Source: a virus (taxonomy: Duplodnaviria; Caudoviricetes). From it: DNA of 31,472 nucleotides. Under the pieces are notes generated by a model, which was not told where the DNA came from, did no database searches, and saw only the letters and a list, made by a program, of their open reading frames with translations. Location of the stretch: IMG/VR virus record IMGVR_UViG_3300047561_000293, positions 1 to 31,472 of that record, one strand, 5' to 3'. Positions within the stretch are counted from its first letter, which is position 1. Each line of letters starts with the position of its first letter. Positions 2,695 through 30,778 of this stretch are shown in pieces. Both the position numbers and the translations under genes were made by a program.

Positions 2695-3914
2695 GCGTTC
2701 TGCAGCTTCAGACACCAGAATGGGCCGTTCCGCTGCTGGAGCCAAGCCGTTACAAAGGGGCCTGGGGAGGCCGAGGCTCTGGCAAGTCCCATATGTTTGC
2801 CGAGCTGATGATCGAGTCACACATCATGGATCAGAAACGGCGCAGCGTCTGCGTCCGTGAAATCCAGAAGTCGCTAAATCAGTCCGTCAAGCGCCTGCTG
2901 GAGACCAAGATTCAGGCCATGAATGCTGGCGCCTACTTCGAGGTGCAGGATGCCGTCATCAAGTCTCGCAAGGCCGATGGCGCGATCATCTTCCAGGGTA
3001 TGCAAAACCACACAGCCGACAGCATCAAGTCGCTGGAAGGTTACGACTGCGCCTGGGTAGAGGAAGCCCAGAGTCTAAGCCAGACCAGTCTCGACTTGCT
3101 GCGGCCAACAATCCGCAAGCCAGGCTCAGAACTGTGGTTTACCTGGAACCCACGCGACAAGTCCGACCCGGTGGATTTTCTGCTGCGTGGCCCGACACCG
3201 CCAAAAGATTCCACTGTCCTAAAGGTCAACTTTACCGATAACCCGTGGTTTCCCGACGTCCTGTGCGACGAGATGGAGTACGACAAGCGGCGCGATCCAG
3301 ACAAGTACAGCCACGTCTGGATGGGCCAATATCTGACCAACAGCAGCAGCCGAGTGTTTAAGAATTGGCGCGTCGAGGACTTTGAGGCACCACCAGATGC
3401 CATTCATCGCTTGGGTGCTGACTGGGGTTTTGCCGTCGATCCAACCACGCTGGTGCGCTGTCACATCATTGGGCGCACGCTCTACATTGACCACGAGGCC
3501 TACATGGTCGGCTGCGAGATCGTCAATACCCCTGAGCTCTTCATGACCGTGCCTGAAGCTGAGAAGTGGCCCATCGTGGCCGACTCTGCCAGGCCAGAGA
3601 CCATCAGCCACATGAAGAAGAATGGCTTTCCTAAGATCATGACCGCGATCAAAGGTCCGAAGTCAGTCGAGGAGGGCGTCGAGTTTCTGAAGAACTATGA
3701 CATCGTTGTCCACCCACGTTGCATTCACACAATTGACGAGCTGACGCTTTACAGTTATAAGCAAGACCCATTGACCGGCAGAATATTGCCGGTGCTGGAG
3801 GACAAAAAGAACCACGTTATTGATGCCTTGCGTTATGCCTGCGAGGCTGTTCGGCGATCCAACGCATCCAGACCAATGGCTTTCACTCCGATCGCCAACA
3901 TGAAAAAGTGGTGA
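2691..3914 (+). CDS. terL: Terminase large subunit (PBSX/SPP1-like, Terminase_3 type)
   Basis: Walker A GGRGSGKS, Walker B AWVEEA, TWNP coupling motif, nuclease motifs GADWGFAVDP, ADSARP and NHVIDALRYA. Confidence 0.95.
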   Translation: MSVLQLQTPEWAVPLLEPSRYKGAWGGRGSGKSHMFAELMIESHIMDQKRRSVCVREIQKSLNQSVKRLLETKIQAMNAGAYFEVQDAVIKSRKADGAIIFQGMQNHTADSIKSLEGYDCAWVEEAQSLSQTSLDLLRPTIRKPGSELWFTWNPRDKSDPVDFLLRGPTPPKDSTVLKVNFTDNPWFPDVLCDEMEYDKRRDPDKYSHVWMGQYLTNSSSRVFKNWRVEDFEAPPDAIHRLGADWGFAVDPTTLVRCHIIGRTLYIDHEAYMVGCEIVNTPELFMTVPEAEKWPIVADSARPETISHMKKNGFPKIMTAIKGPKSVEEGVEFLKNYDIVVHPRCIHTIDELTLYSYKQDPLTGRILPVLEDKKNHVIDALRYACEAVRRSNASRPMAFTPIANMKKW

Positions 3915-26174: not shown

Positions 26175-26398
26175 TTCTCTCCCCTTGCGAGGAAGGCTTT
26201 AAGCACATCATCGGTACAGCAAATCCCTTCGGCATCGCTGTTGTCTAGCACTATTAAGCGACACGCATCCCGCTCATGCGCGGCCACTAATGCGGCAAAG
26301 CGTTCAAGACCGTCAACATTGACAATCTCCCAAGTCCCGTAAAAGTACGGCATCCGCGCTTCTTTTGCCATGCGGATGATGTCGTCTCTGTCAATCAT
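26171..26398 (-). CDS. Hypothetical phage protein
   Basis: DRDDIIRMAKEA...LERFAALVAAHERDAC; coupled in the operon. Confidence 0.7.
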   Translation of the reverse strand: MIDRDDIIRMAKEARMPYFYGTWEIVNVDGLERFAALVAAHERDACRLIVLDNSDAEGICCTDDVLKAFLARGEK

Positions 26399-26465
26399 TT
26401 TTGTTCCTTACTGGGCAATTTCTTCCCTGATTGCAATTCCCGTGGCAGGGAGGACACCGTTTCAT
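26391..26465 (-). CDS. 24-aa Cys-rich peptide nested in an alternative frame
   Basis: MKRCPPCHGNCNQGRNCPVRNKND, preceded by RBS gaggag. Confidence 0.45.
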   Translation of the reverse strand: MKRCPPCHGNCNQGRNCPVRNKND

Positions 26466-26613
26466 TTTTGCTCCTCATTCGTTTAATCATCTTATGGACG
26501 TTCTGGGGGGTGCAGCCCAGAACCCGTGCTATTTCATTCATGGACGGCAACCGGCCCAAGGATTTCTCAAGCCCACCGATTGCGTCCAATAATCGGATCT
26601 GAGCCATCCTCAT
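26395..26613 (-). CDS. Small HTH DNA-binding protein (LexA DNA-binding-domain-like)
   Basis: QIRLLDAI...GRLPSMNEIARVLGCTPQNVHKMIKRM. Confidence 0.65.
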   Translation of the reverse strand: MRMAQIRLLDAIGGLEKSLGRLPSMNEIARVLGCTPQNVHKMIKRMRSKNETVSSLPRELQSGKKLPSKEQK

Positions 26614-27371
26614 GCTGCTGCTTTCATTAGCGCATCAAGAGCGCCAATCCGTGCCGAGAAGGTCTGAAGGAACCTCGCACGCTCTACCATTGACAGCCGG
26701 CTCACTTCAGCGTCGTTAGCGGTACGCAGCAATTTGAGCTTGGCAATGCGATCTGCTGGCGGAATTTTGCCGGCTTTCATCACAGCGTCGGCCAGCGCGT
26801 TGAAATCAACAACCCATCCAGCTTCATCGGCGCTCATTGAACGTGGCTTGGCTTCGTTGGGCACTCGCAATGCCCAGGTGCCACCAGCACCATCCTCAAA
26901 CTCGATGACGTCTGGCGGCGGCTCGGTAGGCTTTGGCAGCGCTTTGGGTGCTACGGCATCCAATGGGTTTGCCGGCTTAACCTCGGGCCGTTGAGGAGGC
27001 TTTCTGCTGGCGGCATTGCCGTCATCATCCTCGGCAGCGATACCGCACGCAGCCATAAGCGAGTACCGGCGAGCGTAGGTCAATGCCGAGCCATACCCTT
27101 GCGGGTCGTGCTTGGCTGCTGGCACGTGGAGTTTGCCCATGCGCAGCGTCTCACCGGACTCATGCAAAAAACACGTTTCCACAGTTACGCCGTCTTGCAC
27201 ATCAAACGTCTCTTGGTAGACAGCAATACCGTTCTCAAGCAAGGCGTCATTGACGGCTTCCAAACAGCTCGCAAGGTCGACGTACTTGTTCTTAAAATGA
27301 GAGTTTGTGTTGGTCTTGAGCGCCGGTGCAAACGCACGTTTGGCTGCGACAAATGCTGCTGCGATTTTCAT
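26610..27371 (-). CDS. erf: ERF-family single-strand annealing protein with C-terminal extension
   Basis: NSHFKNKYVDL and PQGYGSALTYARRYSL...GIAAEDDDGN. Confidence 0.9.
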   Translation of the reverse strand: MKIAAAFVAAKRAFAPALKTNTNSHFKNKYVDLASCLEAVNDALLENGIAVYQETFDVQDGVTVETCFLHESGETLRMGKLHVPAAKHDPQGYGSALTYARRYSLMAACGIAAEDDDGNAASRKPPQRPEVKPANPLDAVAPKALPKPTEPPPDVIEFEDGAGGTWALRVPNEAKPRSMSADEAGWVVDFNALADAVMKAGKIPPADRIAKLKLLRTANDAEVSRLSMVERARFLQTFSARIGALDALMKAAA

Positions 27372-28324
27372 TTTGGTCCCTTAATGGTGACGGTCGATTG
27401 GCGCATTGAGTGCGCAGGCTTGGCGGGCACAACCTTTTCCGGCTGCGCCTGGTACTTGCGGATTGGCCAGGAGATACGGAACTCCTCAGCGTGCGCCAGC
27501 GTTGCGTTACCGAGCATTTCCTTCAGCTCGGTCTCGTCTTCGGTAATTCTGGTTTCCAGCGTCTTGATTTGCTCTTTTGCTTTAACGATCCGCTCAGCCA
27601 GCGTTGCTCCCCATTCACCGAGATCAACTGAGTCTAGATTGGCATCGCCTGGCCACTTGGTGCCGTACTCTGCCGGCGTTGCGGGGTCGTACCATTCGAC
27701 TTCACCAGTCTCGGACCAGTGCGTAATCTTGCTTTCAAAGTCACGGGCGGCGGATCGGATCAGCGCTTGCGTTTCCTCGTGAGGAGCAAAGAGAAATATC
27801 CGCAGCTCGGTGCCTTGATACAAGACGCAGACAGCTCCCCACTTGGCGCCGGTAATATCCATCTGAGCTTGGAGCTGGAGCGGACCACGGCTAAGCGCTG
27901 GGTAATCTTCGGGATACACCGAGGTGACTTTGGCCTCGAGCACGCCGACACCATCAAGCGTGATTGACTCGGCGCCAACAACGTAAACGCCAGCGTCTGG
28001 GTTATCTGTCACGACCAGGCCGTTGCCATCTCCCTGGCCGTCTAAGCTGCAAGCGATCGGCGCGTCAGGATGGAAGTAGGGCTTGGGATGGTCTAACACT
28101 AAGTGTGACAGACCCAGACGTGCGCTTGCCTCAAGCAGAAGCGGCACTTCAAGCAGATTGCCCCAGTGCATTGCCTCGTTGGTCTCAAAATGCTCTGGAG
28201 CGTCCTGTAGCGCGTTTATGACGCTCGTAAGAACACCATTGGGCGTTTCGTACTTTGAGTGTCCCAGCAGGGCTGGGACGCGGGATGCCGACAACATTGT
28301 GTTGGGGGTTACTTTGCCGACCAT
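27368..28324 (-). CDS. YqaJ-like (lambda-type) exonuclease
   Basis: SAS..PALLG.SKY, AMHWGNLLE, CSLDG, LEAK and QLQAQM; coupled to erf. Confidence 0.88.
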   Translation of the reverse strand: MVGKVTPNTMLSASRVPALLGHSKYETPNGVLTSVINALQDAPEHFETNEAMHWGNLLEVPLLLEASARLGLSHLVLDHPKPYFHPDAPIACSLDGQGDGNGLVVTDNPDAGVYVVGAESITLDGVGVLEAKVTSVYPEDYPALSRGPLQLQAQMDITGAKWGAVCVLYQGTELRIFLFAPHEETQALIRSAARDFESKITHWSETGEVEWYDPATPAEYGTKWPGDANLDSVDLGEWGATLAERIVKAKEQIKTLETRITEDETELKEMLGNATLAHAEEFRISWPIRKYQAQPEKVVPAKPAHSMRQSTVTIKGPK

Positions 28325-29079: not shown

Positions 29080-29502
29080 ATGTTTACCCTTCAATTTACG
29101 ATCCCAGGACCACCGGTCGGCAAGGGCAGACCAAGGTTCAGCACGCAAGGCGGCAAGCCCCGCAGCTACACACCGGCTGTTACTCGAGAATATGAAGCGC
29201 TCATCGCAGCTCGAGCAGCAGAAGCTATGAACGGTCATCCACCTTTGCAGACGCAGCTCACCGTCTATATCTACGCATCCATGAGCATTCCCCTGTCGTG
29301 GTCCAAGGCAAAGCGCAAGGCAGCGTTATGTGGCGACATTTACCCTGCCAGACCAGACGTCGACAACATTGCTAAGACGGTGCTGGACGGGATGAATGGC
29401 GTGGTTTACGCAGACGATGCCCAGGTTACTTATTTGAAAGTTACCAAGAAATATGCCGAGGAAGGCAGCGTGACAGTCTGGTTGTCGGAGAACCTGAAGT
29501 GA
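29080..29502 (+). CDS. rusA: RusA-family Holliday junction resolvase
   Basis: IPGPPVGKGRPRF, RPDVDNIAKTVLDGMNG and YADDAQV; RBS ggaga before ATG 29080. Confidence 0.9.
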   Translation: MFTLQFTIPGPPVGKGRPRFSTQGGKPRSYTPAVTREYEALIAARAAEAMNGHPPLQTQLTVYIYASMSIPLSWSKAKRKAALCGDIYPARPDVDNIAKTVLDGMNGVVYADDAQVTYLKVTKKYAEEGSVTVWLSENLK

Positions 29503-29666
29503 GTAAAAAGGCAAACGTCGAAGCCAAGAGACGACTTGAACGGATGCCCTACAGGGGGTTAGATTTAAATGGCAAACCCTTGCGAGATTATACAAAAGCT
29601 GAAAAGGAGATCGTAAAGGAAATCAAAAGAGAATACGAAAACAGCCTCAAAAACACCCCAGAGTAG
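29499..29666 (+). CDS. Hypothetical basic protein, 55 aa (absent from the ORF track)
   Basis: GTG start overlapping the rusA stop (GTGA); MSKKANVEAKRRLERMPYRGLDLNGKPLRDYTKAEKEIVKEIKREYENSLKNTPE; ends 2 bp before the first DnaA box. Confidence 0.55.
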   Translation: MSKKANVEAKRRLERMPYRGLDLNGKPLRDYTKAEKEIVKEIKREYENSLKNTPE

Positions 29667-29668
29667 CC

Positions 29669-29734
29669 TGTGGATAACTTGTGAATAACTACCCTAAGAT
29701 CTGTGGATAACCCTGTGAACAACCTTGTGGATAA
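29669..29734. promoter_or_regulatory. Cluster of five co-oriented DnaA boxes (putative origin of replication)
   Basis: TGTGGATAA at 29669, 29702 and 29726 (perfect TTATCCACA reverse complement); TGTGAATAA at 29680; TGTGAACAA at 29714. Confidence 0.85.
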
Positions 29735-29761
29735 CTTTTCTTCATATACGTGCGCGCGTAG

Positions 29762-29841
29762 AGATCTAAGACTAAGATCTAAGACTAAGATCTAAGACTT
29801 AGAGAGCTAAGACTAAGATCTAAGGAGAAGATCTATGACTA
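29762..29841. repeat. Tandem AGATCTAAGACTA 13-mer array (putative unwinding element or iterons)
   Basis: Units at 29762, 29775, 29788, 29801 (15 bp variant), 29816 and 29829. Confidence 0.9.
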
Positions 29842-30092
29842 AGATGGATGACTCTATATTTAATTTTACTAAAGAAATAAGAGGAGGTTTGAAAAAAATA
29901 AAAGGTGCAAAAATAAGTGGCAACTTGATCGACAAGCTAATTGCTCTGGACATGACGTCAGCGCAAATGCAAAAAGGAATCGAATCGGTTATTAGACGCC
30001 GAATTGATGCAAAGCAACCCGAGGTGGAAACAATGGAAGAGCTTTTATCCGAAGTTGTGACCGACCAAATCCTGAGAAACAATTTAAAGTGA
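29835..30092 (+). CDS. Hypothetical protein adjacent to the origin
   Basis: 85 aa, helical; RBS taaggag lies inside the 13-mer array. Confidence 0.65.
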   Translation: MTKMDDSIFNFTKEIRGGLKKIKGAKISGNLIDKLIALDMTSAQMQKGIESVIRRRIDAKQPEVETMEELLSEVVTDQILRNNLK

Positions 30093-30469
30093 ATCAAATG
30101 AACAAACCAACCGCAGCCAAAGGAACCTACGAGCAGAAACCTGGCAAGGGCGCTGCATTCCCGAATGACAAAAAGGTCGAGGACTGGCACGCCGATTACA
30201 AGGGCCGGATCTGCTTGCCAGACGGTTCGATGCACTGGCTGGACGTGACGATCAAAACCGCGGCTAGCGGGATGCAATACGCTGCTGTGACCATCGGAAA
30301 CGCTTGTGAATCCTCCACCGCGGTCGATCATGGCCCGAAAAGGCATCCAGACGGGCACCAGAACGGCTTTCAGAAGGCGGGTGAGGCTACCCTACCAGCC
30401 CGGATGAAAAACGCGCCACAGGGCCGCGCACCGAGTTTCGAGGAAAACGACGAATCTATCCCCTTCTGA
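30089..30469 (+). CDS. Putative ssDNA-binding protein with SSB-like acidic tail
   Basis: Short beta-rich domain (AFPNDKK...ADYKGRI...WLD), disordered linker, C-terminus ENDESIPF resembling the SSB DDDIPF tail. Confidence 0.6.
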   Translation: MNQMNKPTAAKGTYEQKPGKGAAFPNDKKVEDWHADYKGRICLPDGSMHWLDVTIKTAASGMQYAAVTIGNACESSTAVDHGPKRHPDGHQNGFQKAGEATLPARMKNAPQGRAPSFEENDESIPF

Positions 30470-30487: not shown

Positions 30488-30778
30488 ATGGAAATTAAAT
30501 TAGATCCACTACAAGTCATTGCCAATCATGGATCAATGACGTCAAAGCAATGCGCCGAATACTTTCCCGGATTAAGCTCAAAAGATATTGATGCAAAGCT
30601 GCGTCAGGGCTTTCGGGTTGGGAGACTTGGACGGCGAATTGACGAGACTGACGGCGCCAGTCGCAAGCGATACGTTTATTTCGACGCCAATGGTCGTGCC
30701 AGCAATCGCGAGCCAGAGTATTGCGTCGTTCTCAGAACCCTTGGAAAACCCCTGGAGAGCGTTGATGGAATTTACTAA
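30488..30778 (+). CDS. Putative winged-helix DNA-binding protein
   Basis: LQVIANHGSMTSKQCAEYF...IDAKLRQGFRVGRL...YVY pattern; strong RBS taaggag. Confidence 0.55.
   Translation: MEIKLDPLQVIANHGSMTSKQCAEYFPGLSSKDIDAKLRQGFRVGRLGRRIDETDGASRKRYVYFDANGRASNREPEYCVVLRTLGKPLESVDGIY

Follow-up and report, generated by a model that had tools for sequence, protein, structure and literature searches.

We consider it reasonably probable, judging from sequence, that the block of DNA lying between the rusA and SSB-like genes of this phage is a replication origin that lacks an initiator gene, is fired by the DnaA protein of the host, and is derived from a lambda-type origin. No recognisable initiator was found, and a run of DnaA boxes sits beside the most meltable DNA of the genome in the slot of an initiator gene, so the phage likely copies itself with host machinery. 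If this is true, a lytic-type phage genome would be started by the cell-cycle-regulated initiator of its host with no phage initiator, a strategy new to the literature we searched, and the replication of some small tailed phages without replication genes would be accounted for.

The window, by which we mean the whole stretch of 31,472 nucleotides that was analyzed, is a complete P22-like phage (31.3 kb); it has a direct terminal repeat of 128 bp, and its completeness was rated at 100%. It encodes P22-like terminase, portal, scaffold, coat and head-closure genes together with a holin and an endolysin, and its early region carries Erf, a YqaJ/RecE-like exonuclease, RusA and an SSB-like gene, the last of which in relatives matches the ssDNA-binding protein of Methylophilales phage MEP301. 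The cultured phages nearest by YqaJ (35%) infect Methylophilales and those nearest by coat protein (54-55%) infect Pseudomonas and Ralstonia; none of the cultured phages carries the element region, their matches being to the run of boxes only. Among the 202 ORFs of at least 50 aa, 64 were compared with PHROGs and 20 with Pfam, the remainder being mostly overlapping shadow frames, and these comparisons gave no match to an initiator, helicase, loader, primase, polymerase or integrase family, with 0 matches to a Rep family among the 64 ORFs compared with PHROGs. Promoter and terminator scans gave counts at chance level, and GC skew did not locate an origin because the skew follows gene direction. 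Elsewhere in the window, a ferritin-like ORF was seen at 357-797, with a PHROG match named 'starvation-inducible transcriptional regulator', and a ParB-like domain fused to a DNA methyltransferase at 1113-2297, which is variable among relatives. The features of the region are as follows.

26610..28324, minus strand: recombination module of an Erf-like annealing protein and a YqaJ/RecE-like exonuclease (PHROG E-values 2e-40 and 1e-30)
29080..29502, plus strand: RusA-like Holliday junction resolvase, left marker of the slot (PF05866, E-value 3.5e-32)
29499..29666, plus strand: orf55, a small conserved ORF separable from the boxes (no PHROG or Pfam match)
29669..29734: run of five DnaA boxes in one orientation, reading TTATCCACA on the minus strand and TGTGGATAA-type on the plus strand
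29735..29761, no strand: 27-bp spacer, GC-rich at its end (95% identity over 22 loci)
29762..29845, no strand: AGATCT 13-mer array, candidate unwinding element with two mirror alleles (67% AT)
29835..30092, plus strand: orf85, predicted three-helix protein (model pLDDT 74)
29846..29915, no strand: AT-rich block (76% AT) that shares sequence with the 5' end of orf85 and carries TTATT motifs on its minus strand
30089..30469, plus strand: SSB-like gene, right marker of the slot (phrog_18154, E-value 1.7e-4)
30488..30778, plus strand: orf96, small protein with MarR/wHTH-like features (Atlas 0.91 to a MarR-named cluster)

The first-pass annotation had described a phage with no initiator gene and had placed the block where the O/P genes would be expected, between rusA and an SSB-like gene; both statements were borne out, with the addition that ORFs of 55 and 85 aa also lie in the slot. 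Profile searches recognised no initiator in the window or in four related genomes (92-100% complete, searched in six frames together with the window): the sister O-like profile, run with no positive control in that search, phrog_678 and DnaB_C each matched 0 of the 5 clade genomes, and HTH_36 rose above the cut-off solely in the O-bearing control genome G157 and in none of the five. A weak antisense HTH_36 match inside erf (15 bits, under the cut-off) was not conserved.

The run of five boxes in one orientation within 66 bp, with roughly helical phasing of starts 11, 22, 12 and 12 bp apart, was recovered by motif scan and held up in simulation. The boxes start at 29669, 29680, 29702, 29714 and 29726, and three are perfect while one has 1 mismatch and one has 2 mismatches to TTATCCACA. 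The whole window holds four TTWTNCACA matches, all within the cluster, and since 2.8 are expected genome-wide, the signal lies in the clustering. None of 1000 Markov-simulated genomes placed more than 2 matches within 70 bp, versus four in 66 bp here. Contigs of one public run, possibly the source sample, are identical to 29600-29755 and 29726-29908, and the element was seen again in separately assembled contigs. A sixth AGATCT lies at 29697-29702, between boxes 2 and 3, and relatives do not keep it.

Related elements were collected from several searches. The box-plus-AGATCT pattern matched 28 viral loci, of which 26 belong to the family of the window; orf85 as query returned 34 loci, 32 with 4-5 boxes upstream and 2 interrupted by contig ends; the array pattern matched 39 viral loci, every one with 4-5 boxes within 130 bp upstream; and of 19 loci found by scanning metagenomes, 15 belong to the window's family. 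After these overlapping sets were deduplicated, 35 distinct elements remained, the window included, and all of them lie between rusA/orf55 and orf85/ssb, with no initiator between wherever the flanks reach. Each of the 4 complete clade genomes carries one box cluster, and the O-bearing complete relative carries none. The variation in the 174 boxes of these copies is confined to two positions (151 perfect, 15 TTGTCCACA, 7 TTATTCACA and 1 TTGTTCACA), and the gaps between boxes run 2/13/3/3 in 21 copies, 2/13/3/2 in seven and 3/12/3/3 in six, with one four-box copy. Adjacent boxes are thus separated by 2 or 3 bp only, and compensating gaps of 2+13 or 3+12 keep boxes 1 and 3 at a constant distance of 33 bp. 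In vivo, DnaA favours pairs of boxes 2 or 3 bp apart, according to a passage of PMC11317965. Box sequence and spacing are constrained as would be predicted for DnaA binding.

The spacer from the last box to the array is 27 bp in 34 of the 35 copies and 26 bp in the other. The six-unit 13-mer array reported earlier is present (period 13, 6.3 copies, 82% matches, the top score among the 20 tandem-repeat rows of the window) and its description was refined: the AGATCT hexamers start 13, 13, 15, 13 and 13 bp apart, the fourth unit reads AGAGCT, and the element runs on to about 29915. As claimed, the array is not coding, with stops in all six frames across 29499-30092. The mean step energy of the array is -1.15 versus a genome mean of -1.45, and the least stable 150-bp window of the genome is 29767-29916, at -1.137 (mean -1.447, sd 0.063, nearest-neighbour stacking energy), inside which the best 40- and 80-bp low-stability windows also fall. 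Over 22 loci, third-codon-position identity is 0.93 in the AT-rich block versus 0.73 in the rest of orf85, which indicates that the cis element extends to about 29915; the corresponding values are 0.59 for rusA and 0.75 for ssb. At least two TT[AG]TT motifs occur in the block in 33 of the 35 copies, and the block is kept where orf85 is destroyed. The AT-rich block is likely part of the unwinding element.

By its composition and position, the array itself appears to behave like an unwinding element and not like iterons. The other possibility is that the origin needs a small phage protein (orf96, a 72-aa HTH protein or orf55) which binds the 13-mers as iterons, with DnaA as a helper as in P1 or RK2, and we regard this as unlikely. 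The array units are palindromic, and a palindromic array with two alleles would suit a dimeric binder of double-stranded DNA; plasmid and P1 origins also pair DnaA boxes with a Rep protein and iterons, as passages of PMC4980987 describe. The array, however, occupies the place of the AT-rich stretch that follows the iterons in sister phages, and it is low-stability DNA. In six copies (L035, L038, L039, L040/L220, L041 and L047) the array allele is the reverse complement of the common unit, and the two alleles differ at A/T positions only. The AGATCT hexamer was earlier equated with the ATP-DnaA 6-mer; such a 6-mer is indeed described, in the part of PMC4285127 that we cite, just for the single-stranded E. 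coli DUE.

The main candidate for a hidden phage initiator would be orf96, which is MarR/wHTH-like, gives no PHROG or Pfam match, and is kept in all copies with sufficient flank, as is the 72-aa HTH protein (hth72) at 26395-26613; the flank of L008 ends before hth72. Across relatives, orf96 is 51-99% identical, with no link to array allele: copies with the common allele are 51-99% identical to the window protein, and the 6 copies with the other allele 79-99%. This variation without tracking of the array alleles makes an iteron-binding role less probable. Neither is orf85 needed, as it is destroyed in L004 and in L014, a complete genome, by a stop and a 126-bp deletion, with the element intact; from these sequences it appears dispensable in both relatives. 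It is possibly a relic of the O-like C-terminal domain, with which it aligned weakly (hhalign P 0.01, first of 754 frames, E-value 1.6). Its top viral fold match was a 286-aa HTH-domain protein (weak, E-value 0.45), BLASTP against the L271 initiator was likewise weak (E-value 1.9), the best Z in the PDB comparison was 5.6, and there was no Atlas match. Close matches to orf85 number 47 only, and a profile search among 1.8 billion proteins recovered, apart from its own cluster, one repeat-rich protein. For orf55, an origin as a relic of the O linker was rejected, reversed controls scoring better (15 versus 2 of 138 at P<0.01).

The conservation of the element was compared over 22 loci, after 8 loci with large indels and those with short flanks were dropped. 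Identity was 94% for the boxes, 95% for the spacer, 90% for the array and 94% for the AT-rich block, and 82% for the box spacers, 79% for rusA and orf55 and 87% for ssb. In L002, a DNA methyltransferase gene inserted at 2942-3553 parts orf55 from the boxes, and this insertion, along with the destruction of orf85 beside intact elements, suggests that the element travels as a non-coding unit. Extra genes of about 0.6-0.85 kb inserted beside the origin among rusA, orf55 and the boxes were seen in L001, L002, L005, L011, L019 and L021. That the block could be a decaying, functionless relic of an O-like gene is in our judgment scarcely credible: its order and polarity match the interior of such genes and orf85 is decaying in two relatives, yet the non-coding element is more conserved than the flanking genes, and it has five boxes where 62 O-like genes have 0-2.

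The descent of the element was traced through sister phages. The best 80 among 388 viral YqaJ loci included 33 sister loci at 51-54%, which together with 4 from genome bins made a set of 37. The 18 that reach ssb all have an O-like gene before it, which, set against the 35 copies of the element without an initiator, gives the anticorrelation with replication genes for which the first-pass annotation had proposed a survey; the other 19 stop short of ssb, and 3 of these already show the O-like gene. Three clustered boxes were found in 0 of the 37. The sister initiator family is named replication initiation O-like in PHROGs, and its HTH_36 genes in L271 and L279, like gp55 of MEP301, occupy the same slot before ssb as the element does. 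In MEP301, the nearest cultured phage by YqaJ, the wHTH protein gp55 lies upstream of rusA and ssb, and the box cluster was not found. A YqaJ tree built from 30 chosen rows places the phages that have the element in a single group (support 100/99) nested among O-bearing phages, the nesting having a support of 93/90, below the threshold of the tool, under a midpoint root. Such nesting favours loss of the initiator.

Additional evidence came from the interior of the O-like genes, of which 62 distinct ones were taken from the best 80 of 395 loci after short and duplicate genes were dropped. With five near-consensus variants counted as boxes, 39 of the 62 contain one or two DnaA boxes (range 0-2 per gene). 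The genes, 57 kb in total, have 46 boxes in forward and 3 in reverse orientation, versus 5 and 4 in 236 kb of flanks. The boxes within genes all lie at 61-72% of gene length, ahead of iterons and AT-rich DNA. The O-like examples that were printed read box, palindromic iterons, AT-rich stretch and C-terminal domain; the window reads boxes, spacer, array plus AT-rich block and orf85, with the same polarity and with the iterons missing. The sister-type palindrome is present in 72 of 80 sister loci and was not found near the window element, while 10 of the 35 clade elements have one copy within -200..+450 of the boxes, in the coding stretch of orf85 downstream of the AT-rich block. The shared layout and polarity suggest that the element likely descends from an origin of the kind found within sister O-like genes. 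On this likely account, the element began as a lambda-type origin, from which the initiator and the iterons were lost and in which the DnaA boxes multiplied. In L418, the AT-rich stretch after the iterons holds similar short repeats, and across L348-L427 the strand-biased boxes in O-like genes encode VDN/VDK peptides just before the iterons. Long ORFs with three boxes in coding sequence were observed at L154:1107-2006, L090:4448-5446 and L147:4382-5482, the first of which is O-like by PHROGs and may represent an intermediate state.

In comparison to the lambda-type origin, the element shares the order and polarity of box or boxes, a middle part, an AT-rich stretch and a short helical coding part, and it has the early-operon position with an AT-rich region downstream; it differs in having no wHTH initiator, in lacking palindromic iterons ahead of the AT-rich DNA, in its five boxes where those genes have 0-2, and in being non-coding. 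In comparison to E. coli oriC, it shares the 11-12 bp period of a phased box cluster and an adjacent AT-rich, low-stability element with GATC-containing 13-bp repeats, an AT cluster and TTATT motifs on the T-rich strand, within the TT[AG]T(T) motif taken from passages of PMC10325909. It has, however, one array only, whose polarity is that of the Right-DOR. An R1-type anchor is missing, as is an IHF site (none at up to 1 mismatch in 29401-30100), the boxes are of high and not of low affinity, and the 13-mer sequence is different.

The polarity of the boxes speaks against a DnaA-fired origin, as it is that of the E. coli Right-DOR and not of the Left-DOR. The window boxes read TGTGGATAA toward the array, like R4 and the Right-DOR, whereas in E. 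coli oriC (R1), P1 oriR and Burkholderiaceae origins the box nearest the DUE faces that element in the TTATCCACA reading. According to the passages used from PMC10325909, the Left-DOR suffices for unwinding and the Right-DOR binds the T-rich strand moderately; some box orientations are tunable, in T. maritima and in the Right-DOR, with the DUE-proximal box kept, as parts of PMC10316083 and PMC13643167 indicate. A basal unwinding system (BUS), in the section drawn on from PMC8287927, has at least three DnaA-trios no more than about 16 bp beyond a box that reads TTATCCACA. Such trios were found after a box of that reading on neither side, and to the left of box 1 there is a single CTA in variable flank. 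The earlier label of oriC mimic is therefore not supported: with opposite polarity to R1 and missing trios and IHF site, the element is likely no copy of a host oriC.

Burkholderiaceae BUS origins share tandem boxes, a GC-rich spacer and AT-rich DNA with the element, and their distal pair resembles its 22-bp-spaced TGTGGATAA pair, but the trio repeat is missing in the window. P1 oriR likewise has tandem DnaA boxes, GATC-containing short repeats and a GC-rich spacer; its boxes, in contrast, read TTATCCACA toward the repeats, and it needs RepA and five 19-bp iterons, neither of which was found in the window. The element would work like a DUE-plus-box origin and, by its motifs, falls outside the oriC and BUS types. 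Host chromosomes were also considered as a source. The array pattern had 3 matches in the genome collection, none with boxes, and the pattern of box pair and AGATCT gave 29 unrelated loci without the array. For a source in the family Burkholderiaceae, box pairs were present in 29 of 151 genomes, and those at origins used trios; in the MAGs holding sister contigs, the box pair was present in 0 of 2.

The earlier proposal of a cis-only mini-oriC in place of the initiator module stands as regards the missing initiator and the initiator slot and fails as regards the oriC type, and firing by DnaA alone is what we infer. In the proposed mechanism, a lambda-type origin would have lost its O-like initiator gene and iterons, ATP-DnaA would oligomerise on the five boxes, and the array and AT-rich block would then melt, probably assisted by early transcription from the rusA side. 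As there is no IHF site, the helper in melting would be a non-specific bending protein, probably HU, going by the passages cited. DnaA would hold the T-rich minus strand and recruit the host helicase, and later concatemer replication would proceed via Erf, the YqaJ-like exonuclease, RusA and SSB.

The same recombination module admits another reading, in which the phage replicates by recombination or restart, with the YqaJ-like exonuclease, Erf, SSB, RusA and PriA, the last belonging to the restart pathway of the host, and the boxes either form a sink for DnaA or put a roadblock in the way of transcription through the early operon. DnaA is able to block elongating RNA polymerase and affects transcriptional activation in lambda, as stated in the portions consulted of PMC11317965 and PMC3985674, respectively, and box clusters are common in phages away from replication genes. 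We nevertheless hold this reading to be quite unlikely. A sink or roadblock would require neither a spacer kept at 27 bp nor conservation of the least stable 150 bp of the genome, no IHF site is present, and sister phages that have the same recombination genes still keep the O-like initiator.

Triple-box clusters occur at no fewer than 121 viral loci. Among the 80 listed, many adjoin terminase genes or end-like sequence or fall within rep genes, and DnaA boxes play an accessory part in iteron plasmids and in lambda in what is cited here from PMC4980987 and PMC3985674. Since clusters are common in phages and accessory elsewhere, the boxes alone prove nothing about an origin. Box clusters right before G-runs, terminase genes or end-like sequence were seen in L086, L089, L091, L092, L101, L102, L106, L113, L143, L146, L148, L153 and L159. 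A role of the boxes in DNA entry, tethering or packaging has been proposed for T5, in which, as far as the cited part of 10.1101/866236 goes, the eight boxes that T5-like phages keep lie at the injection stop and an origin role is not demonstrated. T5 and the window both have a conserved non-coding box array, and many viral clusters adjoin terminase or end-like sequences as noted; the T5 boxes, however, are in the terminal repeat, while those of the window fill the initiator slot beside a conserved low-stability block. Such a role is very improbable here, since the element replaces an initiator gene within the early replication slot, and on the circle about 4 kb separate it from the terminase genes.

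A host-DnaA-fired origin may be present in other phages as well. A second, unrelated family (L111:5012, L117:3695, L128:5001, L138:1984, L145:5001 and L158:3985, the last in genome G158) has 3-4 co-oriented boxes 11-12 bp apart followed by AT-rich DNA in the window polarity, with YqaJ-like genes near, and 5 of the 6 loci share a AAAATTAAGCA/AAAATTTAAGCA/AAAATTAGGCA-like motif. In G158, which is complete at 38 kb, no initiator, helicase or primase match was obtained in the 61 of 65 ORFs scanned, nor any HTH_36 match; RecET-like genes, RusA and a clamp-like gene are present. No phage shown to replicate by DnaA alone was found in the literature search, older reviews of replication modules being outside its coverage. 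That tailed phages can shed their initiator altogether and replicate as natural DnaA minichromosomes, having turned the accessory DnaA boxes of a lambda-type origin into a five-box platform whose polarity differs from that of known DUE-proximal arrays, and that at least two unrelated families have arrived at such a layout, is a proposition on which we find the balance even. If true, it would provide a traceable path from an O-dependent to a DnaA-dependent origin, and a natural 250-bp test of DNA opening by a single box array of Right-DOR polarity. As a minor observation, short GATCAAGA repeats lie by a DnaA box pair at L076:1400-1560, in a genome-bin contig, and resemble the interior of a rep gene.
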